Part shown: positions 17,560-29,506 of the stretch, one piece after another
How the letters are laid out: every line of letters starts with the position of its first letter
Numbering within the stretch: the stretch's first letter is position 1
Origin: Tolypothrix carrinoi HA7290-LM1
Lineage (GTDB): Bacteria; Cyanobacteriota; Cyanobacteriia; Cyanobacteriales; Nostocaceae
NCBI GenBank assembly: GCA_019358935.1
Contig: JAHHIK010000098.1
Coordinates: 1 to 29,506 of the forward strand
Reading direction: 5' to 3'
Length of the DNA: 29,506 bases
Notes under the pieces: model-generated
What the model saw: only the letters and a program-made list of their open reading frames with translations
What the model was told of the DNA's origin: nothing
The model's database searches: none
Translations under genes and position numbers: made by a program

Positions 17560-17935
17560 ATGTCCCGGCATTTAGAACGGCTACTGCAAATAGATTCATT
17601 GTTAAGAACGGCAACGCGACAAACAAACGTAAGCCTTGCTCAAGAATTAGAAGTCAGCGAACGAACGATTCGTAACGATCTGGCTTTTTTACGCGATCGC
17701 TTTGATGCACCTTTGGAGTATACCCCGAAATTAGGTCATCACTACACTGATTCAGAATGGCGATTGCCGAGTATTTCTTTAACTAAAGGTGAGTTGTTTG
17801 CTCTTACCGTGGGTGCGAGGATGTTAGAAGCGTATGCTGGTTTACCTTATGCGTTGCAGTTGCGGTCGGCGATCGCACAACGCACGCAAACGTTTACCTG
17901 AGAAAACCTGGGTGAATGTGCAACAGCTAGCATAG
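17560..17935 (+). pseudogene. HTH-WYL transcriptional regulator, frameshifted and truncated (WYL domain lost)
   Basis: MSRHLERLLQID..LAQELEVSERTIRNDLAFLRDR wHTH. After LRSAIAQ the family-like sequence KRLPEKTWVNVQQLA continues in another frame and stops at about 17935. Confidence 0.85.
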
Positions 17936-18183
17936 GTCAATAAACCCTTTGCAGTTAATATCTTGTTCGCTTAATATGGGTGATTGCTGACAAGTCAAGT
18001 TTGATTAACTACTTTATTTCAAATTTTACCAGCTACATCAACTTTAAAAGTTGGTGTAATAAAGGCTGGGAAAATACTGTGGCTGAGTTCACCCTTCGGG
18101 TACGTCCGTTTGAACTCGACGGGAACCGCTAAGACTTCTGAGCAAATTTAGCGAGACAATAAATCGTTTATTTTCGACTAGCA

Positions 18184-18855
18184 ATGGATAACGTTATTAA
18201 TTTGTCTTTTCGGGTAAATGGTACCGAATTACCAGCCGATCATAACCATCGACTTTTAGCTGCTATCTGCAAGTTATTACCGCAGATACACAAATTAGAC
18301 AAAATAGCGATTAACACTATTACGGGTATCCCAAACAAACAGGGAAAAATCACCCTTACGCACAAATCTCGATTACTTTTGAGATTACCTGTAGAAGCGA
18401 TCGCTCAAGTTTATCCCCTCGTCAATCAAACTCTAGATATAGGTGGTTGCAAAATCCTACTGGGTGACGCAGAACTGCAAACTCTAAAACCAGTAGATAT
18501 CCTCAAAGCCAGACTGGTAACTATCAAAGGCTATACCGAACCGGAGACATTTTTAGGTGCTGCTCATCGTCAATTACAAGAATTAAGTATCAACGCTAAT
18601 GTTGGTATTCCTGCGAATGAAAAGGGTGAACCCAAACGCTTGACGCTCAAAATTAGACATGAAGAAAAACAGCACATAATTGTTGGTTTCAGTGTAATTG
18701 TTTCTGACCTGAGTCCAGAAGATTCAATCAAACTGCAAATTCACGGGTTGGGTGGTAAGCGTCGTCTTGGTTGCGGCATTTTCTGCCCAAATATTTCGGT
18801 TTATCAAAGCAATAGAGGTAATTTCAGTGCTGAATCCGAAAAAATTACTAGCTAA
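18184..18855 (+). CDS. cas6: Cas6 endoribonuclease, type I-B/I-MYXAN (Cmx6)
   Basis: LPADH, LKARLVTIKG, C-terminal G-rich loop GLGGKRRLGCGIF. Confidence 0.93.
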   Translation: MDNVINLSFRVNGTELPADHNHRLLAAICKLLPQIHKLDKIAINTITGIPNKQGKITLTHKSRLLLRLPVEAIAQVYPLVNQTLDIGGCKILLGDAELQTLKPVDILKARLVTIKGYTEPETFLGAAHRQLQELSINANVGIPANEKGEPKRLTLKIRHEEKQHIIVGFSVIVSDLSPEDSIKLQIHGLGGKRRLGCGIFCPNISVYQSNRGNFSAESEKITS

Positions 18856-19402
18856 AAGTCCTAAAGCAGATGGTGCAGAACTTACTCTTAATCAGCATTT
18901 AATTGATACTGATAACGCAGCACAGGCTATTTTCAGAGGAAGAATTTTAGATAACTGGTGTCGATTTTTTAAAGTTAAGGATGCTAGTAAATTTTTATAT
19001 CATTTACGAATAGCATCGCTTTTTCATGATATTGGCAAAGCAAATTCAGAGTTTTTAACAGGACTGAAAAGCAAGAAATACAAACAAAGTTTACGTCATG
19101 AATGGTTGAGTGCAATGATTTTGCATTTACCAAGCGTGAGGAAGTGGTTAGAGCCAAGTAAACTAGATTTGGAAGTTATTACGGCGGCTGTAAATTCTCA
19201 TCACCTCAAATCTCATCCAAAATGTTGGGGGATACCAAGAACACTTGTAAAGGAGTTTGAACTTTACATTAAAGAACCAGAAGTTATTAATATTCTGGAG
19301 AAAATAGGAAAAATTGCCGATGTTAATGGACTTCCAGAATTACCAGAGAGTTGGGTTGCAAGTGATAGGTTTTGGCAGCAAGTTTATCAACTTGACTTAT
19401 AA
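18827..19402 (+). pseudogene. cas3: Cas3 N-terminal HD nuclease fragment; helicase deleted
   Basis: RBS GAGGT plus GTG at 18827; LLAKS..TLNQHLIDT, LFHDIGKAN, RHEWLS, SHH; no helicase motifs. Confidence 0.88.
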
Positions 19403-20831
19403 AGCTTTTGCGGAAGAAAGATATACGGAGAAAAGGATAAACAATTATGACCGGGAAGAAACAGTTGAACTAACTGACAAAAATGGTAAAACTAAACAGG
19501 TTCAACGTTACTACTATACTGTTACAGTTCCAGAAGGTGCGTTTTTACCTGATTGGGATAAATCTAATGATGACCCGAATCATGGTATTTGGGTTAAATT
19601 ATGGCGGGATATGTTGTGGCAAATTGTTCGAGGTGTTCCAGCAACGCGCAACCCTTTTAATTTTCGAGTAAATGGTGCATCGTATTCACAAGATGTAGAA
19701 GCAATTTGGGCAGCATTACAACAGCCAGAAAAAATAATCGGACAGTCGGGTAATTATTACTTGGGTGCAACGGCAATAAATCCTGAAAATATACCAGTAA
19801 AAGATAAGGCAATATATCAATTTCTCTTACATTTTTGGGTTTTTGTCACGCAAGTGTATTCTCCCACAATTCTTGATAAAGATGGTCTGCGCGAGTTTGC
19901 TGGTTATGCTCTCGCAATTCCGGATGTCGCAAATCTGCGTAGATTTTGTAGTATTTTTCAGCAGGTACTAGCAGCACGCGAATCAGATAAATGGCGGCAT
20001 CTTCCACGGGAAGCTATTATTGATTTACCCGAAGAAGGTGCATTAGACCTACTATTACTTTTAGAAGACCGCATTAAACGTGAAATTGGCGGTCAACAAT
20101 TACGGCGTTTAATTTTAGGAATTGAACTCATCCATGCCGAAAAAGTAGGTAATAATATTAAAATTCGCTCGGTTAGTTATGTGGAACCAGTTACAAAACT
20201 AATTGATGATTACCGCACAATTAAAAAAATGTACTGGTGTCCTTGGTTCCGCAAGCAGCGATTAATTAATTTATTAAAGAATAAATCAGAGTCAGATGAG
20301 CAAGAAAATAATTTACCCCAGATTCAGCCGTGGAGTGATTTTGATGCTGTTTTAAGCCGGATTCCTCGAAAGTGGTTGCAAGACTCGTTATTTAGACATG
20401 ATGCTCGTGAATTCTTTAAACATGAAGTAAAAATTGATATGAAAAAAGAAATTCGTGATGATGCAAGAATTATTTATGATGTTTGCCAGCATTATGTTTT
20501 GAGTAAACTGGAATCAAAGTATGATTTGAAATGGGATAAATGCAAAGGTAATCCGAAAAAAGAAGAAGAGTAGAACGAAAAAAAATATAAGATTGCTAAT
20601 GAAGCATTTTTAGCAGTGCGATCGCGAACCGAAAAACAGGCTTTTATAGATTATTTTGTATCTACTCTCTACCCCTTTGTAAAAGAAAATGAATTCGTTG
20701 AATTTGCTAATACACTATTTAACAAATTTGATGAAATTCGTCCGCTAACACTTTTAGCGCTTTCCAGTCAGTATCCTCTAAACAAAAAGCCTGACGATAA
20801 AAGTTCTGAAACTACAGTAGAAGCAACATAA
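19392..20831 (+). pseudogene. cas8: Cas8 (Cmx8/Cas8a1-like, I-MYXAN) lacking its N-terminus, with an internal amber stop at 20571-20573
   Basis: P.GAFL, W.KLWRDMLWQI.RGVPATR.PF, QFLLHFW, GYALAIPDV. The frame continues through the TAG (EEE*NEKKYKIANEAFLAVRSRT..FIDYF..LTLLALS). Confidence 0.88.
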
Positions 20832-20886
20832 CCAAAAATTACCTTTGATTGCCTTTAGGCGTATAGTTGTTAAAAGGAAAATCGCC

Positions 20887-21807
20887 ATGAAAAAGAATTT
20901 GAATTTATTTGCCACAGTTTTGACTTATCCTGCACCATCAAGTAACTATCGGGGTGAATCTGAAGAAAATCGCACAGTTTTGCAAAAAATTTCCAAAAAT
21001 GGTCAAAAGTATGCTGTAGTTAGTCCGGAATCGTTGCGAAATGCATTGCGAGAAACTTTGATTTTAATGGAACAACCGCATAACCGCACGCGGATACATG
21101 ATGCAGACCAATTAGCTGTAGAATTTAAAGAATTTCCCAACGCTAGCAAGTATGCAGATGATTACTTGTTTGGCTTCATGGTGGCAAAACCAGAAGACGC
21201 AAAGAAAAATAAACCTTTACCACCAAAACGAGACAGCATTTTTCGCTGCAATATGGCAGTTGCATTAAGTCCTTACAAATATGATGCGGTGTTTCATCAA
21301 TCACCACTGAATGCCAAAACTAAAAATAATGAAAAGACCTATTGGAATAATGCCGGCACATCAGCACTGTTGCACCGTGAAGTCACGCATACCGCATTTC
21401 AGTATCCTTTTGCCTTATCTGGAAGGGATTGTCAGCAACATCCAGAATGGGTGCGGACATTATTGCAAGCGATCGCTCAACTTAATCGGGTTGCAGGTGG
21501 TCATGCTCGTGCTTATTATGAATTTGCACCCCGCTCTGTAGTAGCAAGGCTTACACCTAAGCTTGTGGCTGGTTACAACACTTATGGATTTAATGATGAT
21601 GGTGATTTCCCTGAGTTACTGCAAAGATTAGGGAAAGCCAACACAGAAAACTGTGACCTACCAGGAAATGAATTTTGGTTGGGTGGAGAAATCGTCCGCA
21701 ATTTAAATGAAGACACGAAAAAACGCTTGGAAGATGCGGGAGTAAATCTTTATGCTAACCCTGAGCATTTATTTGATGCATTGGCTAACCAGTTTTTAGA
21801 AGGTTGA
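20887..21807 (+). CDS. cas7: Cas7 / DevR backbone subunit
   Basis: SNYRGESEENRTVLQK, SPESLRNALRE, FHQSP, LLHREVTHTAFQYPF, VAGGHAR; RBS AAAGGA before ATG 20887. Confidence 0.93.
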   Translation: MKKNLNLFATVLTYPAPSSNYRGESEENRTVLQKISKNGQKYAVVSPESLRNALRETLILMEQPHNRTRIHDADQLAVEFKEFPNASKYADDYLFGFMVAKPEDAKKNKPLPPKRDSIFRCNMAVALSPYKYDAVFHQSPLNAKTKNNEKTYWNNAGTSALLHREVTHTAFQYPFALSGRDCQQHPEWVRTLLQAIAQLNRVAGGHARAYYEFAPRSVVARLTPKLVAGYNTYGFNDDGDFPELLQRLGKANTENCDLPGNEFWLGGEIVRNLNEDTKKRLEDAGVNLYANPEHLFDALANQFLEG

Positions 21808-21811
21808 GAGC

Positions 21812-22570
21812 ATGGCTAATCCTCATTCAGAATTAGTTGAGCTATTTTTACATCTGAAAGCACCATTTGCTGCATTTCGACCCTTTCAATCTGGTTCTTA
21901 TCGTTCGACAACAGCAGTACCATCACCTTCAACTGTGTATGGCTTAATACTCAATTTAGCCGGGATTGAACAGCGGAAAGAATTAGCTGCTCCTGTGACG
22001 CTTATCAAAGAAGATTTGCCAGAAATAGAAATTGCAATCGGGCAAGTTTCCCAGCCAGAAATAGCATTTCTTTCTCAGCAATTACATCAATATCCAGTCG
22101 GTGCATCCGGTGCAGAATTGGCGCAAAAGACATACGGTGCAAAGTATTGGATAGCTCCAGTGCGACGAGCAGTGTTAGTGAATCTAGATTTAATTGTGGG
22201 TGTACGGGCAGAAAAATGGTTGTGCGATCGCCTCGATTGGGTTCGGGTTCCAGACCTGACATATGTATCCTACAATCGTCTTGCTGTGGATTGGTTTGCA
22301 GATGAGGCTTGTCCTGTAATACCCGAATTAGCCATCGAAATTATTTCCCCTGGTCAAACTTTTGGCGAGATGACCGAAAAAGCAACTAACTATCTTAAAG
22401 CTGGTGTCTCTCGTGTTTGGGTTGTGGATACTAAAGCCAAGACTATCACGATTTTCTATCCCGATGCCCCACCTCAAACCAAACGAGGTGAAGATTCTTT
22501 AGAAGATTCGCTGTTTGAAAAGTTGCAAATTACACCCCAAGCAATCTTTCAACAAGCAGGAATTCCTTAA
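21812..22570 (+). CDS. cas5: Chimeric ORF: Cas5/DevS N-terminal ~140 aa fused in frame to the C-terminal part of a Uma2 endonuclease
   Basis: APFAAFRPFQSGSYRST..PSPSTVYGLILNLAG, QQLH.YPVG, K..IAPVRR (Cas5), then VPDLTYV..PELAIEIISP..KATNYLKAGVSRVWVVD (Uma2); junction at HIP1 22224-22231. Confidence 0.85.
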   Translation: MANPHSELVELFLHLKAPFAAFRPFQSGSYRSTTAVPSPSTVYGLILNLAGIEQRKELAAPVTLIKEDLPEIEIAIGQVSQPEIAFLSQQLHQYPVGASGAELAQKTYGAKYWIAPVRRAVLVNLDLIVGVRAEKWLCDRLDWVRVPDLTYVSYNRLAVDWFADEACPVIPELAIEIISPGQTFGEMTEKATNYLKAGVSRVWVVDTKAKTITIFYPDAPPQTKRGEDSLEDSLFEKLQITPQAIFQQAGIP

Positions 22571-22574
22571 AATA

Positions 22575-22668
22575 CAGGACTTACGCAAAAATTCTCTCTC
22601 TTCCTCATTCCTCTGTGAACTCTGCGTTCTCTGCGGTTCGTTTTTCCATGACAAGTGCGTAAGTCCTA
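22575..22668. repeat. MITE-like repeat with terminal inverted repeats
   Basis: CAGGACTTACGCA...TGCGTAAGTCCTA. Confidence 0.8.
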
Positions 22669-22670
22669 AA

Positions 22671-22706: not shown

Positions 22707-22721
22707 ACAACTTCACTCTAG

Positions 22722-22922
22722 TTACTCCGTTCTCTTGTCCCGTTGAGTTGGATCTACTAAGTTGGCTTTTTTAACTTCTGGCTCGTAACCGCAGTTAACG
22801 CAGTGGAACAAGCGAACCCGCACTTCTTCTAAGTTGGCACGTAAGATCCAATACGGGAATAGTCCGTAAGCGTTACAGCCACAATTAGGGCAAGTGGAAA
22901 AAGAATCGTTTCTGTTAGTCAC
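22722..22922 (-). CDS. Small zinc-ribbon protein
   Basis: CPNC..CVNC; GTG start overlaps the recombinase stop (GTGA). Confidence 0.6.
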   Translation of the reverse strand: MTNRNDSFSTCPNCGCNAYGLFPYWILRANLEEVRVRLFHCVNCGYEPEVKKANLVDPTQRDKRTE

Positions 22923-24119
22923 TGTACAATTGCTTTTACCAATTCCTTAAATAGTAACTTTGCAGCTTTGGCACTAATGCGCGATCGCACTAATCGAACC
23001 GGACGACCGGCAGTTTTTTCAGCATCCAACTGAGAACCCAGAATTGCACCAATCTCATTATCAAGGCGGCAGCGCTTAACCTCGATGCGGGTGAAAACCC
23101 ATTGCCAGAAAGCAATACGGCACAAATCAGAACCACCGACAATTTTAATTTTAGTTTTATCGCCTGATGCTTCTAGGGAAGGTGCAAGCCCCAAGGACTT
23201 CTGAAAGCGGCGTAGTGACAGGTAGCGTTTTGTGGGCTTTCCAGACTTTCGACCCTTGCTAATTCTTACCTCTGGCTTACCGTCAGCACCAAAGTAATTT
23301 TCTAACGGGTAAATTTGACTGAGGATAATTGCCTCTAATCGCAACCCGAAACCAAAGGTTTTAAATACCTGGCGATAAGCCGTAAATTTCGGAGCGGTCA
23401 AAAGCTGCTGTAGTTCGACCTCAATACTGTGTTCTTCTCGCTGTAAGTCACATAAACGTCTTGCGTGATGCCGAACTGTTTCAGTAATGTCCAATCCAGC
23501 AGAGCGATCTAATATCGCGTCGTATCGTTTGATGAATGCGTTCCCCACACAACCACCCCCACAATAAGGGCACGTCACCATCAATTGCCCGTCGAGAATT
23601 TACGTGTGCGACTTCTGGGAATTGCCAAGCTAAGTCTTGACGCAAACGATTGATAATTGGCGATTGCACCCGGTTGAGGTGAGCAAGTCGCAACACCAAT
23701 TCTCTAATGCGGGTTGTGGTGAAATCGCGAATTTGTACAAAGCGCCTGGGGGAATCGAAATAGTCAAAGTAGTAACAGGCGAGTGCTAGTGCGTCGGCAT
23801 CGTCATCTTTGTCGGGCAGACTTAATTGGTGTTCCCGGTAATTTCTCAACTCTTTGTGTCCCACAAGTCTGACCTCGACCCCGGTACGAGCCAAGTGTGT
23901 TCCCCAAAGTTTTGAGTAATTTACACCAGTCGGCTCCATGAGTGCAATATCAGGATGCAGCGCCAGCAGTGCTTTTATTCCCTCGCTGTTGGCGCTAAAC
24001 GACATGAACGGACATTCATAGTAAAATTGACGAGGATCGCTTGGCTTGCTTTCGAGCAAGCACGCTCTAACTGAGGACTTGCTAATATCAAGCCCCAAAA
24101 TTCTTTTATTCTCTTGCAT
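22919..24119 (-). pseudogene. IS110-family (DEDD RuvC + Ser-containing Tnp domain) recombinase, single frameshift near 23530-23545
   Basis: GLDISK, MEPTG, KDDDADA (DEDD), NRLRQDLAWQFPE coiled coil; second frame has FGFGL and LGLAPSLEASG (catalytic-Ser motif). Confidence 0.88.
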
Positions 24120-24155
24120 TGGGTGTGGTTGTTGGTTATTAACCCCGTATAAAAA

Positions 24156-24352
24156 GCCTGCGAATCACCCAAAAGCACGTAGCCTAACTCACTCTTAAGG
24201 CTGCGTCAAAACGGGACCTTGACGCTACGAGGCAAGCTGTAGAAAGTGCAGTAACCGAGCTTGTGAAAAGGTAAAAGCAGTAATGCTTGATTCGTCCTGA
24301 AAGCCCTAAGTTGCTGCACTGTTTACAGGCGAATGATTTGGACTCGATCCGC
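24156..24352 (-). ncRNA. Structured ncRNA upstream of the IS110 recombinase, bridge-RNA-like
   Basis: Minus-strand stems AGTGCAGCAAC/GTTACTGCACT, GGGCTT/AAGCTC, AAGC/GCTT enclosing a 12x12 internal loop; CGTAGC/GCTACG, GCGTCAA/TTGACGC; closing AATCATTC/GGGTGATT. Confidence 0.65.
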
Positions 24353-24412
24353 GACTCCCCAGTGTGGGGAGTTTCGCCGGTGAGTTAGTCCGGCTCGTCA
24401 GGCCTAAAAATC
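24335..24412 (-). ncRNA. Hammerhead ribozyme (type I topology)
   Basis: CUGACGA (24401-24395), stem II GCCGG/CCGGC, GAAA (24375-24372), stem III CUCCCC/GGGGAG, GUC cleavage triplet (24355-24353); stem I is 2 bp plus an internal loop plus GAUUU/AAAUC. Confidence 0.88.
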
Positions 24413-24808
24413 GTCATCATCGTCATCATCGTCATCGTCATCGTCATCCTCTTCTGTGATGACCTCGGACTGTACAGTTACAGCAGTTAGCAAGTTCCGA
24501 AACTGAGGCATTGATGGCGCTTCTGGGTTTAGTCCTTGGGCTTTTAAGAAGTCGGCTGTCGCGTCCCACTCCTTACGTAGCTTGTCTAATTTTTCTTCTA
24601 AACGTTCGCATTCGCGGGCATGTTTTCTTGCATTGTCGTAAAATTCCTGTGCTGTTGGTCCGACGATGCTTTTTGCTTTTTCTCTCAATCGGACGACCAC
24701 AGATTCAACTGTTTCTTTTTCATCCAATTCAACAGAAAAACCGATTCTTTCGTTGTTGTAGCTACCAGTTGAAATTAGAAAATGTGCGTGTAGGCGTTTA
24801 ATTTTCAT
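24404..24808 (-). CDS. Hypothetical coiled-coil protein with poly-Asp C-terminal tail
   Basis: ATG at 24808 (MKIKRLHAHF..); the upstream extension in the ORF track overlaps the ATPase gene and a structured spacer. Confidence 0.7.
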   Translation of the reverse strand: MKIKRLHAHFLISTGSYNNERIGFSVELDEKETVESVVVRLREKAKSIVGPTAQEFYDNARKHARECERLEEKLDKLRKEWDATADFLKAQGLNPEAPSMPQFRNLLTAVTVQSEVITEEDDDDDDDDDDDDDF

Positions 24809-24911
24809 GGTGGTGATAAAATACTTCCGTCTGAGTTGTCGGAAGCGATGCCGAGTACGGCAACGTTTCGCGATCGCGCTCTGTGTGTGCAGAGTGCGAT
24901 CGCACTCCTCA

Positions 24912-26072
24912 TTATCCAAGCTTGCGCCGCAACTTCTCCAGCACGGTTTTACCTTCTGAGTAGCGTTTCCCGGTGAAACCGAGAATCTCAGTGACAATAT
25001 CGCTATCGGACTTTTCGGCTCCAAATCGCTGGATCATCCGCCAAAGTAGCTTGTCAGCGTCGGAACAATTTTCCTCCAAATCCGCCTCGGAAGCGGTTTT
25101 TAGGGCATTTTCTGGAGCATTTTGGGGCTGGATCGCGTTGTCACTACTTGGTGCTAGCATGGTTGAACCATGCCGGGATGATGCTGTCTTCATTTCCCTG
25201 TAACTTGGGAGTTTACAAGGACTATCGTCGAGCAGACAGTGCGACCGGTCTTGTTTTAACCAGTCAACAAGGTCGTTATTTTTCAAGGATTTGGCGTGGA
25301 TGAGCGCTTTTTTCCCCAGTCTTATGCGGTAAAAAGCGTCTGCCAAATCTGATTTACCCTCAAGTCCCCAAGCCGCTACTCGGTCATACTGCGAGAGTAA
25401 AACTGTAAACCGCCGCGCTTTACGACCTCTGCGGGCGTGACGCTCCAGCCATTCCCCAGACGAGGGGACTTTAGAAACCAGTTCCGGGTACTCCTCAACG
25501 ATAATTACCCGTTCTGTACCGTCTAACGCGCTGTCACCGCGCTCATTACGGGTTTTCATTTGTTTGGATAAATCCTCCAAATCTGACAACATTCCGCGCT
25601 CGATAGCCGCCCAATCCTCGCCTTTACCAACTACTTCAAGTCCCAGCCAGTCAGTAGGTGTACCCTCGCATTCGTATACCTTGACACGTCCGCCAACGGT
25701 GTAAGCTAGGTACTGAGCAATGGTTGACTTGCCTGTCCCCATCTCCCCAATCACCATTACTTGTTTGCCTTCAGTGGCGGCAACGAGATCGGTGATGATG
25801 TCGAGCGGTTCAGTGACGGTCGTTGCAGCGACATCGATGATGTTTTGCACTTCGGCACCCATATAGGGAAGCTGATCGTAAACTTTAAGCAGGTGCAAGG
25901 TGGTTTGACGTGTCATTTCGCACACGCCGATAGTCACTTTGCAGGCGATCGTAATGCCATGCAACCCAAATAACCATCCAGATAACATTACTCTCCCAGT
26001 TCCCCAAAGTGCGTATTTGGCAATTTCTTTGGGGCTTGGGAGGCGCATCGGTACCCAGTAATTATCTGCCAT
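24912..26072 (-). CDS. P-loop ATPase with N-terminal hydrophobic segment (FtsK/HerA/coupling-protein-like)
   Basis: Walker A GEMGTGKS, Walker B VIIVEE, RRGRK, LLSQ. Confidence 0.75.
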   Translation of the reverse strand: MADNYWVPMRLPSPKEIAKYALWGTGRVMLSGWLFGLHGITIACKVTIGVCEMTRQTTLHLLKVYDQLPYMGAEVQNIIDVAATTVTEPLDIITDLVAATEGKQVMVIGEMGTGKSTIAQYLAYTVGGRVKVYECEGTPTDWLGLEVVGKGEDWAAIERGMLSDLEDLSKQMKTRNERGDSALDGTERVIIVEEYPELVSKVPSSGEWLERHARRGRKARRFTVLLSQYDRVAAWGLEGKSDLADAFYRIRLGKKALIHAKSLKNNDLVDWLKQDRSHCLLDDSPCKLPSYREMKTASSRHGSTMLAPSSDNAIQPQNAPENALKTASEADLEENCSDADKLLWRMIQRFGAEKSDSDIVTEILGFTGKRYSEGKTVLEKLRRKLG

Positions 26073-26217
26073 AAAGTACCCCCTCTTTAAATGCCCGAAA
26101 ATCAGAGTTACATTGCGAAAGTGCTATTTGTAACTCAGCATTTTTGATGTGCAGCCAGATGGCGACGCCGAGCGCCGCCACTCCTAAAAATATGGGTGTA
26201 GCGTCGCTTTCTTTCAT
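26062..26217 (-). CDS. Small membrane protein, 51 aa (not in ORF track)
   Basis: MKESDATPIFLGVAALGVAIWLHIKNAELQ..GVLYGR; ATGA overlap upstream; contains GAGGGG RBS for the ATPase. Confidence 0.65.
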   Translation of the reverse strand: MKESDATPIFLGVAALGVAIWLHIKNAELQIALSQCNSDFRAFKEGVLYGR

Positions 26218-26390
26218 TCGTCGTTGACTTGCCCCTCAAGCCGAATTCTGGTTACTTCAACTTCAATGATTTCGGTGAGTTGCTCCAAGCCGATTTGCAA
26301 GTTTTCACGGGTGCTATCGTCAATGACGATCGGCGTGATTCCCATTGCTTCCCAAAAAGTTAGCTCTAGTGGATTTTTTTCTGGTTTCAT
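26214..26390 (-). CDS. Hypothetical protein, 58 aa (not in ORF track)
   Basis: MKPEKNPLELTFWEAMG..GQVNDE; ATGA overlaps at both ends. Confidence 0.65.
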   Translation of the reverse strand: MKPEKNPLELTFWEAMGITPIVIDDSTRENLQIGLEQLTEIIEVEVTRIRLEGQVNDE

Positions 26391-26593
26391 TCGTCGTTGC
26401 CTCTAGATTGGAGATATGGCAGCACTTGATTGATGATTTCCTGGTCTTGGGGTGTACGTCCCAAGTTAGGCGCTCCGGCTTCATCGGTGGCGATGATGGC
26501 AGCAGCTTTATATGTCAAGTCTTCGGGTACACCGCTTTCTTCACAGGCTCTTACAGTTGCACCCCAAAGGTTTGGGTCAAAAGATTTACTCAT
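26387..26593 (-). CDS. Hypothetical protein
   Basis: ATGA-coupled to both neighbours. Confidence 0.7.
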   Translation of the reverse strand: MSKSFDPNLWGATVRACEESGVPEDLTYKAAAIIATDEAGAPNLGRTPQDQEIINQVLPYLQSRGNDE

Positions 26594-26799
26594 CCGCCAA
26601 TCCTCCGATATATAAAAGTATTAGAGGCTGTAGATTCAGTAACTTTAATGTCCGCTTCATCCATGCTGGCGATAATGTCTGCCGTGCCGGTTGTGTCGTG
26701 CCGAATACTTTTTTCAATCATTGCGCCTAAACCGGGACGTGCAGCGTCAAATACCTCAATTACTTTTTGCTCTTTACTTGTAAGCGGTTTTTCTGACAT
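26590..26799 (-). CDS. Hypothetical protein
   Basis: Strong RBS TAAGGAG upstream; coupled downstream. Confidence 0.72.
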   Translation of the reverse strand: MSEKPLTSKEQKVIEVFDAARPGLGAMIEKSIRHDTTGTADIIASMDEADIKVTESTASNTFIYRRIGG

Positions 26800-26909
26800 T
26801 ATTGAATTGCTCCTTATTTTTATTTGGGGTCGAAACTTAGTATCCCCGTTACGGTTACTGAGTTTCGGGTTTTTACACTTTGAGAAAGCGATCGCACGGA
26901 AAGCGTAAT

Positions 26910-27164
26910 CTAAGCGATCGCTTTTTCATTGATGGTCAAATCTTCCAAAATATAAGTGGCAACAGTGGTTGCTAATTCCAGCAAGCCTGCGTCATCCATT
27001 TCGCAGTCAAGAATTGTTTGATGGGGAATATCGTTAAAGCCCCACTCCTTCCACTGATACTCAATTGTGGTTTTTTCGCGGATGGCTAAGAAAATTAAAC
27101 AGCCCAATCCGGTTAACTGGACGTGGTTTAGCTCGGTGAGGATTTCTTCGTGTTCTTCATTCAT
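26910..27164 (-). CDS. Hypothetical acidic protein
   Basis: ATG at 27164 overlaps the upstream stop (ATGA). Confidence 0.65.
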   Translation of the reverse strand: MNEEHEEILTELNHVQLTGLGCLIFLAIREKTTIEYQWKEWGFNDIPHQTILDCEMDDAGLLELATTVATYILEDLTINEKAIA

Positions 27165-27508
27165 GGTGCTGGTGTGTAGTGGTTTGAAAGTGAAACTCGG
27201 TAGCAACGTCCGCCGCCAACCATCAAAACCTCTCGGTCAGATAATCGCACAGCTTTCGAGCGAGAAACTTTCATCATGGGAAAGGAGCCATCGGGAGAGA
27301 GGCTGAAAAGTTCGTAGTTTTTTAAAAAGCTCCATTCGACAGGGGTTTTATCTGAAAGTCCGCTATAAGCCACAACTGTCATCTCAGTGGCAGATGTTGC
27401 GCTGGGTAAAGAGGGCAAATGACGGCGCTGTTTAGTGTCTTTGGTGGCTTTATTCCCAGGTTGTGACTGGGTTTTAGTGCCATTACTGTTGGTTTCTAGT
27501 GCTTCCAT
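27161..27508 (-). CDS. Hypothetical protein
   Basis: ATG-initiated 115-aa ORF co-oriented in the operon. Confidence 0.7.
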   Translation of the reverse strand: MEALETNSNGTKTQSQPGNKATKDTKQRRHLPSLPSATSATEMTVVAYSGLSDKTPVEWSFLKNYELFSLSPDGSFPMMKVSRSKAVRLSDREVLMVGGGRCYRVSLSNHYTPAP

Positions 27509-27543
27509 AGTTGGGTTTTAATCCCCTATTAAGGGCGATAAAA

Positions 27544-27822
27544 TTATTCTGTTTTAAGAGGCAGTAATGTCTGAAAGTGCCCAACGGTGGACTGTTCAGC
27601 CTCGTGAATCAGGGTGTTGATTATCAATTGCACAAGTTTTAGGCGCTCGTAATCAGTCAATGTTCCCAGGTAGTCCAACACTTCATCGTCAAGGTAGAAA
27701 AATAGCTCGTCTGACAATCCCTGAAAGTCATCGTCTGGAAACATCAAGCTACGGGAGAGTAGCTCTACAACTGACAATAAGTGGTCACGATTAAGCGTTC
27801 TTATTAGTTCTTGGTTGTTCAT
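27544..27822 (-). CDS. Hypothetical protein
   Basis: ATG at 27822 (MNNQELIRT..), acidic helical composition. Confidence 0.6.
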   Translation of the reverse strand: MNNQELIRTLNRDHLLSVVELLSRSLMFPDDDFQGLSDELFFYLDDEVLDYLGTLTDYERLKLVQLIINTLIHEAEQSTVGHFQTLLPLKTE

Positions 27823-27967
27823 CGCTAGATTCTGGTACTGCTTGTTGGGCTTCAAGTTCTGGCTCTTCTTCGTAGCATTTAGGGTTGCAAGCCTCCTGTA
27901 TGTGACCAATCTCTTGGAGATAACAAATATCGCATTCAAAGCAAATTCCCTTGGAGCTACTCATCAT
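27791..27967 (-). CDS. Small Cys-rich protein, 58 aa (not in ORF track)
   Basis: MMSSSKGICFECDICYLQEIGHIQEACNPKCYEEEPE..; GAGGA immediately upstream. Confidence 0.45.
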   Translation of the reverse strand: MMSSSKGICFECDICYLQEIGHIQEACNPKCYEEEPELEAQQAVPESSDEQPRTNKNA

Positions 27968-28164
27968 TCCTCAAGTTGGTTGGGTTGTTGGGGCGCAAAT
28001 CTCACTCGTTCAACTGCTAGCAGGTCTTTTACTTGCACTACTTGGCTTGCAGGCTGCTATCTCTGCTTGGTTTGCAGTTGGGGGAGTGTGGTAATGAAAA
28101 ATTAAATAAGGGCAGGCATCTTCACGGCGTCACTGTTTTGATGCCTGTTTTTTAGTTCCATCTG

Positions 28165-28213
28165 CTAGGCAATATAACTAGTATTTTTACTAGGAAATTT
28201 GCTTAGTTATAAT
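28165..28213. promoter_or_regulatory. Divergent promoter/operator region
   Basis: CTAG at 28165, 28178, 28190 and TTAG at 28203 (12-13 nt period); CTAGTA-TTTT-TACTAG palindrome; TATAAT at 28208-28213. Confidence 0.55.
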
Positions 28214-28216
28214 GCT

Positions 28217-28465
28217 ATGGTAAGAAAGAGAAAGAGTCAACCCCATTTACCTGAGGAAAACGTGGTGCCGCTAAAGGCTTTGCGTGAGGAGCTTAACATG
28301 ACCCAAGCTGAGTTTGCTGTAACTATCGGCATTGATCCATCTACGGTAAGCCGTTGCGAAAGAGGGATTGCCGAGCCAACTTTTACAGTCTTACAAATGA
28401 AGAAGCTGTGCAAGCTCACTGGGAAAGATGTTTTGGATTTTCCCGATCACCTAGGTAAATCCTAA
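28217..28465 (+). CDS. XRE-family HTH transcriptional regulator
   Basis: LKALREELNMTQAEFAVTIGIDPSTVSRCERGIAEP. Confidence 0.92.
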   Translation: MVRKRKSQPHLPEENVVPLKALREELNMTQAEFAVTIGIDPSTVSRCERGIAEPTFTVLQMKKLCKLTGKDVLDFPDHLGKS

Positions 28466-28470
28466 ATAAC

Positions 28471-28506
28471 AAGCCGTCCCCGCCTTGCGGTAGGGACGGC
28501 TTTTTG
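28471..28506 (+). terminator. Intrinsic terminator after xre
   Basis: AAGCCGTCCC..GGGACGGCTTTTTT. Confidence 0.8.
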
Positions 28507-28569
28507 ATGGGTGCGATCGCAGTGAAGTGCGATCGCGTCCAATGACTAATGCCCATTTAACCAAAACCT

Positions 28570-28821
28570 ATGAAACGAAACAGAAGAAGCGCACTTACAG
28601 AAGCTGCCCGGTCAAGCCCACTTTTCCAAGCAACAGAAACAGCGGGAGTCGAACTAACTAAACTTATCGACTTTATCGAATATCACAACCCGGACATAGA
28701 CAGAGCCACCGCCACGTTGACGGCTGCATTTGCCTTGCATGAGCTACGCGCTGCTTTCTTAGAGGAACCAGAGATGATGCAGCAGTTAAGGGCGATCGCA
28801 CTCTGGTTTTCTCAAAGATAA
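28570..28821 (+). CDS. Hypothetical protein
   Basis: 83-aa ATG ORF between two terminator-like hairpins. Confidence 0.65.
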   Translation: MKRNRRSALTEAARSSPLFQATETAGVELTKLIDFIEYHNPDIDRATATLTAAFALHELRAAFLEEPEMMQQLRAIALWFSQR

Positions 28822-29012
28822 AAAATTAAAAAGCCCCCCAGAACTTTAGCAAAGACGGGCGGCTTTTATTAAGTTGATTGAACTATAGGTACTTACGTAT
28901 CTGCTTAATCCGCTCACAAACCGCTTTCAATCACGCTCTTAATCGCTTTTATAAGAAGAATGCAAACTTCTGCAATCACGCACTTACTTTGTACAATCAT
29001 GCACTTACAATT

Positions 29013-29506
29013 ATGCCACAAAATCAATTAGTTTCTTTCCCCAATCGTGAAAATAAAGTTTCAGTAAAGTACAACAAACCTCATTGCATTATCCCCATAT
29101 CAGACATTACATGGATAACGCAACAAGTAAAAGCAGTTCAGACATTGTGGAATGAATGTTGGGTATCAGACCCATTTGGCAGTCGATGGGAGAAGCTATC
29201 AACCAACCTCACAGAAACAGCATTTAGGTTAGCTAGAAAGATTTTATACGCAGCTGGGCTATTTGAATTTAAGCGCGATACCTGCATACATGACAGTCGA
29301 AAAACAGCGGGCTGGTTGGTAATTAATCTTCATGGCGCTAGAAGAATTAAAGACTTTTGGTGCAGCGAAGAAACTGAAACGACATCCGACATAAACACGG
29401 CGACATCCGACATAAACACGGCGACATCCGACATAAACACGGCGATATCCGACACAAAATCAACGGTGGAAATTGTTGAAACCCCTGAATTTTCAAGCGT
29501 TTCAGA
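29013..29506 (+). CDS. Partial ORF (runs off the window), putative winged-helix replication initiator-like protein
   Basis: Open from ATG 29013 to the end: MPQNQLVSF..SDPFGSRW..AFRLARKILYAAGLFEF.. followed by (TSDINTA)n. Function is inferred from architecture only. Confidence 0.55.
   Translation, partial: MPQNQLVSFPNRENKVSVKYNKPHCIIPISDITWITQQVKAVQTLWNECWVSDPFGSRWEKLSTNLTETAFRLARKILYAAGLFEFKRDTCIHDSRKTAGWLVINLHGARRIKDFWCSEETETTSDINTATSDINTATSDINTAISDTKSTVEIVETPEFSSVS
29380..29460 (+). repeat. 21-nt tandem repeats, iteron-like
   Basis: CGACATCCGACATAAACACGG x3 perfect plus one degenerate copy. Confidence 0.9.

Follow-up and report, generated by a model that had tools for sequence, protein, structure and literature searches.

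On the minus strand, positions 22713..29506 of the window (the whole stretch of 29,506 nucleotides analysed here) hold the right part of an IS110-bounded integrative element, 6.8 kb of which are present before it runs off the contig. An Xre/Cro-type HTH regulator (28199..28465, plus strand; family F14, of which the homologue at L093 was scanned) is divergent from a block of minus-strand genes. The block includes a 386-aa P-loop ATPase of the element (24912..26072; family F13) and a 134-aa gene with a poly-Asp tail (24404..24807; family F9, present in 5 of 14 element stretches). The stop codon of the latter ends 2 nt before the core of a type I hammerhead ribozyme (24351..24403, minus strand). 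Further along the same strand lie a bridge RNA, its IS110-family bridge recombinase gene (22919..24119) and a 66-aa ORF with two CxxC motifs (22722..22922), the last one within the element. The right end itself (22713..22720, minus strand) consists of the left-donor sequence and a GA core (22714-22713).

The two strands of the hammerhead core are CUGACGA (24401-24395) and GAAA (24375-24372). Between them lies stem II (24394-24376), with 5 bp and a 9-nt loop; stem III (24371-24355) has 6 bp. Stems II and III are closed; stem I, open as in type I hammerheads, is reduced to 2 bp. The cleavage triplet is GUC, for a predicted cut between 24353 and 24352. An earlier note on this DNA had reported all the conserved core bases and the same cut, and we find both as described, the triplet being always GUC or GUA in homologues. 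Its statement that cutting splits the mRNA and leaves a downstream RNA with a 5′-OH is accepted on established hammerhead chemistry. The label "canonical" suits the core; it does not suit stem I, one pair below most homologues, nor the Rfam models, which miss this hammerhead. Among 71 distinct homologues, 67 have a stem I of 3 bp, and two-sided changes are absent from this stem; its third position is C-G in 62 of the 71 and G:G in one, the window copy. The extension of stem I proposed in the same note, with GAUUU in the poly-Asp codons pairing to AAAUC, has to be abandoned: at least five pairs form in 3 of 74 cases, and the mean of 2.50 pairs compares with 2.56 in shuffled sequences.

Loop II bases ACUC (24382..24385, minus strand) can pair with GAGU (24345-24342) in a pseudoknot that joins stem II to the 3′ side of stem I. 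At least four such pairs are found in 40 of 61 homologues (shuffles: mean 20.6, maximum 30), with compensatory swaps; the pseudoknot is missing in about a third of these 61. In an alignment of 46 sequences, 88% of the cells of this helix are paired and three of its five pairs change on both sides. The bases paired by loop II lie 7-14 nt past the cut. This contact had been correctly anticipated, but the GAGU was misplaced in an internal loop of stem I: it sits in a conserved hairpin just 3′ of the cut. That 24-nt hairpin (24329..24352, minus strand) would form the 5′ end of the cleavage product, as an alternative pairing that takes the bases of the 3′ strand of stem I. Its outer two pairs are present in 46/46 and 44/46 aligned sequences, and the first product base keeps both of its pairing options, which exclude each other, in all 46.

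The core CUGANGA/GAAA is intact in 64 of 71 distinct homologues, with the triplet GUC in 61 and GUA in 10. The first pair of stem III is C-G in 71/71, pairs 2-5 alternate between G-C, U-A, C-G and A-U, and stems II and III covary. Across the 46-sequence alignment 89% of the cells pair and 11 of 19 pairs show two-sided change; the covariation score, inflated by the relatedness of the sequences, is matched by none of 500 shuffles. The comparison with Rfam hammerhead models suggested in the earlier note returned nothing above threshold: the search of the whole window gave no match, and in a local scan Hammerhead_II matched only partially, scoring 16.7 bits where the cut-off is 37. The RNA of the window thus falls within the definition of the hammerhead motif and below the Rfam gathering thresholds (RF00163 or its clan). 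The minimum-energy fold of the region differs from the hammerhead (z −1.36). In a model without the pseudoknot, the fold in which stem I is lost to the downstream hairpin reaches −27.8 kcal/mol against −21.9 for the active fold, about 6 lower. Altogether, comparison of homologous sequences confirms that the hammerhead is real, beyond chance.

Two structural variants of the ribozyme were observed. Nostoc hammerheads L027, L029, L031-L033, L038-L040, L043, L045-L050, L054 and L067 carry an extra hairpin between the CUGAUGA core strand and stem II, a four-way variant. Those at L127, L244 and L246 have a one-base insertion in the core.

The 233 nt between the cut site and the recombinase start codon hold the bridge RNA. 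It begins with the 24-nt hairpin, continues with a long stem whose internal loop contains two variable segments, and ends in a second domain with two conserved segments. We parse it as a target-binding loop (24237..24328, minus strand; left target guide 24300-24292, right target guide 24273-24265) and a donor-binding domain (24143..24232, minus strand; left donor guide 24197-24189, right donor guide 24171-24162). Read by the rules of IS621, the guide segments give a GA core. The earlier note had rightly placed the ribozyme at a gene junction and had overlooked both this RNA and the IS110 recombinase gene behind it.

The guides agree with the DNA around the elements. The target loop could be parsed in 71 of 85 loci, with the right end found 3′ of the gene in 63, of which 62 are distinct. 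In 38 of these 62 the right target guide fits the right flank at all five variable positions (10,000 shuffles: mean 0.8, maximum 5). A metagenome set gave matches between right guide and flank in 18 of 36 cases, or 14 of 27 for previously unseen guides. For the left guide, 14 of 20 extended loci have a left-end-like site, and the guide fits the five bases before that site in 11 of the 14 (shuffles: maximum 5). The donor guides were compared over 121 rows, including 22 mis-parses and 17 true variants, 10 of them without an evaluable end: with variant donor guides the element ends deviate identically in 7/7 evaluable cases, and standard donor guides match in 42/48. We rejected the plain complement of the right donor guide as the left end: it was not found near the elements. 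The real left end lacks one base, hence the right donor guide pairs discontinuously. The genome of the window has four distinct guides; a candidate left junction could be assigned to every one, in three cases near contig ends. On the strength of these matches, we identify the RNA downstream of the hammerhead as a bridge RNA.

The recombinase gene of the window is frameshifted near 23536 and split into two ORFs of 212 and 221 aa. It matches DEDD_Tnp_IS110 at 33.3 bits (cut-off 29) and Transposase_20 weakly, and the intact homologue L081 passes both Pfam cut-offs. Among 15 recombinase homologues, residues D11, E62, D106 and D109 are invariant and S317 nearly so. A single recombinase sequence finds no match in the PDB; a profile of homologues matches ISCro4 and IS621 (E 1e-8 and 1e-6, respectively). 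Recombinase homologues of the Microcoleus type (L118, L257, L262) have an N-terminal extension, and a bridge RNA is absent directly upstream of them.

How closely is the ribozyme tied to this pair? A strict descriptor, run on both strands of the 7.96-Mb genome, returned eight matches. Four are clean hammerheads (contigs C12, C98, which is the window, C102 and C127), all of them directly 5′ of copies of one recombinase gene. The same descriptor gave no match in 1.27 Mb of other DNA from 80 related loci. Our genome set counts 85 loci, 80 from genomes and 5 copies in the genome of the window; seven are without a bridge RNA. A hammerhead is present in 74 of the 78 bridge-bearing loci, 67 with an intact core and 7 with a one-base variant, and absent from 4. 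From the 80 loci of the metagenome set, 11 with too little upstream DNA were left out; the other 69 yield 54 intact hammerheads and 2 variants, some of these contigs coming from the same organisms as the genome set. The same finder made no call in 195 control windows. By eye, the 13 uncalled metagenome loci comprise about five with insertion or stem I variants or lying outside the stretch inspected, two decayed, four core-less and two without a bridge RNA. Core variants or decay also occur at metagenome loci L213 and L219.

The association extends to recombinases only 32-41% identical to the query (L114, L119, L121, L122, L137, L140, L142, L144 and L146-L148); two distant ones, L120 and L141, have no hammerhead. 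Overall, 138 of 155 recombinases, and 12 of 13 clusters at 45% identity, are accompanied by a hammerhead, counts biased upward by the inclusion of loci chosen with the RNA model. Of 301 genomes drawn from across the phylum, 30 contain the family. A covariance-model search of 151 genomes produced 35 matches in 20 genomes; the model, R1, is biased towards this hammerhead type by its inclusion of the downstream hairpin. Among the 30 matches fetched, 25 have the recombinase directly 3′, one precedes a bridge-like region at a contig end, one is decayed, one is due to chance and two stand before unrelated genes. In 625 kb from 61 sources, whole elements included, the 46 model matches at E < 1e-5 never fall twice in one source. 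As side observations, two hammerheads stand in tandem at L055 of the first locus set, and L162 and L165 have a hammerhead of this type, downstream hairpin included, before unrelated small genes.

Spacing is equally constrained. The distance from the cut to the target loop is 42-51 nt in 71 of 73 loci. Upstream, an ORF end was found in 44 of 74 loci examined; in 38 of the 44 the stop codon lies within 12 nt of the hammerhead core, and the gene it closes varies between elements. The loci are related, so that the linkage counts are of non-independent events; with that limit, sequence comparison establishes a fixed linkage and spacing of ribozyme and bridge RNA.

Some lineages depart from this arrangement. 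At L056, L058, L135, L254, L255, L258 and L261 the bridge RNA is kept and a core-less hairpin takes the place of the ribozyme; it may be a non-catalytic stand-in or an unrecognised ribozyme. The hammerhead is lost at L019 and at G000:C49. An IS110 copy of more classical type on contig C96 of the window's genome is without a hammerhead, and viral contigs and a phage collection contained no relative detectable with the query used. We also observed that the core-less lineage has the downstream loop motif as well, and inspection by eye suggests that a comparable alternative pairing is retained. At G000 C49, near 57000, the 5′ half of the hammerhead is gone and a terminator-like hairpin stands upstream, with a guide that still matches its own right flank.

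The element can be followed beyond the contig. A left junction matching it is found on contig C119 together with 8.2 kb of element, for a total of at least 15 kb. A relative (G024:C71) has the empty site, where the match begins at the core, and its left flank is also present on C119 beside the left end. Twelve elements could be delimited by their ends. They are 7.8-17.2 kb long, and the target loop of the bridge RNA lies 6.5-15.8 kb from the left end. None of the 12 has the compact layout of IS621-type elements (left end with bridge RNA, recombinase gene, right end). Intact examples are found in AP025018.1 (L060/L082) and CP150887.1 (L263).

A gene block on the opposite strand is common cargo, encoding a 272-aa protein, small proteins and a low-complexity protein of 800-1000 aa. 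A tyrosine recombinase occurs in 10 of 14 element stretches, besides the HTH regulator, the ATPase and sometimes an amidase. Representatives of 26 cargo families gave matches to an integrase, HTH, amidase, oxygenase, weakly to an ATPase, and a single weak one to a tail protein; neither these representatives nor a fold search revealed a coat, Zot or capsid gene in the elements. The 272-aa protein (L093:14968-15786; G000 C119:2891-3709) has 306 homologues, many of them on contigs of 14-18 kb, about one element length. Its model is confident (pLDDT 84.5), and the fold has no match in PDB or BFVD at E 0.001. Among the Atlas neighbours, which are unnamed, many are viral. We treat "phage-like" as a lead only. 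Scans for promoters and terminators gave counts at chance level and nothing between the upstream gene and the bridge RNA, sigma-70 scans being weak for cyanobacteria. At G000 C33:4520-4794, C101:26778-26854 and C21:45805-47551, left-end and right-end words lie close together, possibly as mini or decayed derivatives movable in trans. An additional left-end word accompanies many left ends, 66-138 bases further inside.

The copy in the window is damaged. Its guides fit the site at C59/C127 and not its own, at which agreement is limited to two of five positions on the right flank and, judged by eye from the empty site, two of the last six on the left. The recombinase of C127 is frameshifted like that of the window (C98), and the two copies are identical bar one indel over about 1 kb, a tract that takes in the frameshift and the two guide loops; beyond it they diverge on either side. 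A recent conversion between them would be the simplest reading. We rejected assembly collapse as the origin of the common guide: in unitigs of run X1, the tract 23235-24343 has about double the depth of its neighbours and hardly any alternative letters, which indicates two near-identical copies. X1 may be the source sample, and short reads leave the pairing of upstream part and right end (phasing) of C98 and C127 uncertain. The recombinase frame is intact at C12 and could act in trans on the copy of the window.

We now propose a role for the ribozyme. A GA-core IS110 recombinase and its two-loop bridge RNA would insert cyanobacterial elements of 8-17 kb with phage-like cargo. In IS621, a junction promoter stands directly before the bridge RNA (PMC11208160). 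Here the bridge RNA lies 6.5-15.8 kb from the left end, and therefore such a promoter could not start it directly. Since kilobases of cargo separate the two, bridge RNA and recombinase would instead be transcribed at the end of a polycistronic mRNA. The ribozyme, a few bases past the upstream stop codon, would fold through its 2-3 bp stem I and the loop II pseudoknot and cut after GUC. Once freed, the 5′ bases of the product may join the downstream strand in the first hairpin of the bridge RNA, so releasing the product and disfavouring re-ligation. The predicted outcome is an RNA with a defined 5′-OH end and both guide loops that continues into the recombinase gene. A 5′-OH end resists the 5′-monophosphate-dependent decay carried out by RNase E and RNase J. 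Stability of that end, escape from the decay of the upstream mRNA and better activity are candidate benefits. We conclude that the 5′ end of the transcript for bridge RNA and recombinase is probably the work of the ribozyme. Such trimming may be dispensable, because IS621 bridge RNAs extended 5′, 3′ or both still recombine, about two-fold less with both ends extended (PMC13626964). The core-less lineage, and the inactive fold about 6 kcal/mol lower in the pseudoknot-free model, likewise argue against a strict need for the ribozyme.

Hammerheads are found near integrase genes and flanking genes in prophages (Perreault et al., PMC3088659), and the one described here could be a generic member of that group: a linked passenger without function for the guide RNA, acting instead on the operon by dividing it or on the mRNA of the upstream gene by trimming its 3′ end. 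Its start right at the stop codon agrees with this, as do the hammerheads of the same type before other genes at L162 and L165, the ribozyme-less lineages that keep a bridge RNA and the function of extended bridge RNAs in IS621 (PMC13626964). However, there is one hammerhead per element, at the recombinase junction and not at the many other gene junctions, and it is the upstream gene that changes, the partner on the downstream side and the spacing of 42-51 nt staying constant. The linkage moreover spans recombinases of 32% identity with quite different bridge RNA sequences, which makes a mere passenger unlikely. That the ribozyme is a catalytically dead relic, or a purely structural leader of the bridge RNA, appears highly improbable. 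The core is intact in 64 of 71 homologues, the triplet is always GUC or GUA and the stems vary freely with compensatory changes, and this combination is the pattern of selection on catalysis, against which stand the lack of a significant Rfam score, a stem I of merely 2-3 bp and the core variants or decay at 7 of 78 genome loci and at L213 and L219.

The strand swap could also serve regulation. The downstream hairpin would then hold the ribozyme off, and cleavage, conditional on ribosomes ending at the adjacent stop codon, on pausing or on binding of the recombinase, would gate or dampen excision instead of maturing the guide constitutively. A point in favour is that in IS621, excision rises about 100-fold on expression of the bridge RNA with the wild-type guide (PMC13626964). 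The mutually exclusive pairings kept in 46/46 sequences and the lower energy of the inactive fold (by about 6 kcal/mol, in the model without the pseudoknot) are compatible with such a switch, as is the proximity of the stop codon, found at 38 of 44 loci within a distance of 1-12 nt of the core. The core-less lineage appears by eye to retain a similar strand swap. Release of the product explains the swap equally well, though, and fast natural hammerheads commonly combine short stems with pseudoknots (PMC3088659); no effector-binding feature was identified. A regulated switch is, in our estimate, decidedly unlikely, and we retain the formation of the transcript's 5′ end as the preferred reading. 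A wider scenario is possible and put forward tentatively: a cyanobacterial phage-like clade may have domesticated an IS110 bridge recombinase as the integrase of 8-17 kb genomes, with the bridge RNA moved off the junction promoter and the hammerhead recruited as a required, possibly translation-coupled, maturation switch. If true, this would be a natural self-processing cassette of ribozyme, guide and recombinase, in which RNA catalysis licenses RNA-guided integration and excision.

The system shares its main parts with IS621 and ISCro4 (Durrant et al. 2024, PMC11208160; Hiraizumi et al. 2026, PMC13626964; PDB 8wt6, 9t56). As described there, a DEDD RuvC-like domain is followed by a C-terminal domain with a conserved serine, and a non-coding RNA 5′ of the gene comprises a 5′ stem-loop, a target loop and a donor loop. 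Four guides overlap at a dinucleotide core, right-donor pairing is discontinuous, and the ends read LT-core-RD and LD-core-RT. In contrast to these, the cyanobacterial core is GA instead of CT, and the recombinase, of about 400-430 aa, is too distant for a single-sequence match in the PDB. The elements reach 8-17 kb, with the bridge RNA far from the left end and a natural hammerhead at its 5′ end. The ribozyme in the IS621 work is an engineered HDV at the 3′ end, the only one in the parts consulted (PMC11208160). The words "ribozyme" and "hammerhead" have no occurrence in the supplementary files of Durrant et al. that were searched and are absent from a 2026 review (PMC13604230), and the examined parts of PMC13626964 make no mention of a ribozyme.

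As to the hammerhead, its consensus core, topology, stem I-stem II pseudoknot and short stem are those of the type I prophage hammerheads of RF00163 described by Perreault et al. 2011 (PMC3088659), which are likewise intergenic in prophage-like DNA near a recombinase gene. Unlike those presented in that work, ours are below the Rfam thresholds, single in each element and set at a fixed distance from one non-coding partner. They also have a stem I strand that switches into a downstream hairpin, and a Nostoc sub-family with an inserted hairpin. The role of bacterial hammerheads has been described as an open question (PMC6155905, in the part consulted).

Natural hammerheads placed to cut out the guides of an RNA-guided DNA-recognition system are also found in VIPR guide arrays, where processing is reported as checked by small-RNA sequencing (bioRxiv 10.64898/2026.04.26.720920, from the portion available). 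The protein and guide of VIPR are unrelated to ours, and its arrays of many guides differ from a single bispecific bridge RNA fused to the recombinase message. Filamentous phages, namely Neisseria Nf, Thermus phiOH16, Zuza8 and Zuza27, and Acinetobacter Af1, are likewise multi-gene elements with a terminal IS110 gene as their integrase (PMC11437467, PMC11209303). Af1, of about 7 kb, has recognisable inovirus genes, whereas the cyanobacterial elements are larger, often with a second (tyrosine) recombinase and sometimes an amidase; the passages of these two papers that we consulted mention neither a bridge RNA nor a ribozyme. Bridge RNAs and a divergent hammerhead cluster are treated separately, the latter without gene context, in the consulted part of a preprint (10.64898/2026.10.21.760802), whose supplements or database could hold this motif. 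No natural link between a ribozyme and a bridge RNA was found in the literature searched, with most subscription papers outside it. A 2010 paper in RNA by de la Pena and Garcia-Robles, which predates bridge RNAs, reportedly lists some bacterial hammerheads, possibly cyanobacterial ones.

A ribozyme, a bridge RNA and an IS110 recombinase at the end of 8-17 kb cyanobacterial elements thus appear as parts of known kinds in a new combination. The hammerhead has here a fixed partner and a scorable phenotype, the rates of insertion and excision with a live or a dead ribozyme. It suggests how a bridge RNA buried in an operon, far from a junction promoter, may be made. The locus also exposes a divergent clade of bridge recombinases with a GA core and about 5+2+5 programmable target bases that naturally moves 8-17 kb in cyanobacteria. 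With more than 100 natural guide-target examples and a predicted built-in, self-processing guide cassette, it is of interest for genome engineering.

The surroundings of the element deserve a short description. A short dispersed repeat at 22576-22670 of the window, missing in the empty-site allele of the relative, has dozens of copies in this and related genomes. Positions 17560-22570 encode a Type I-B cas operon with an HTH gene, cas6, a Cas3 HD, cas8b, a 320-aa ORF in the cas7 position and cas5. The frame of cas5 runs into a fragment of a Uma2 endonuclease, and some 140 bases separate the end of the operon from the element's right end.
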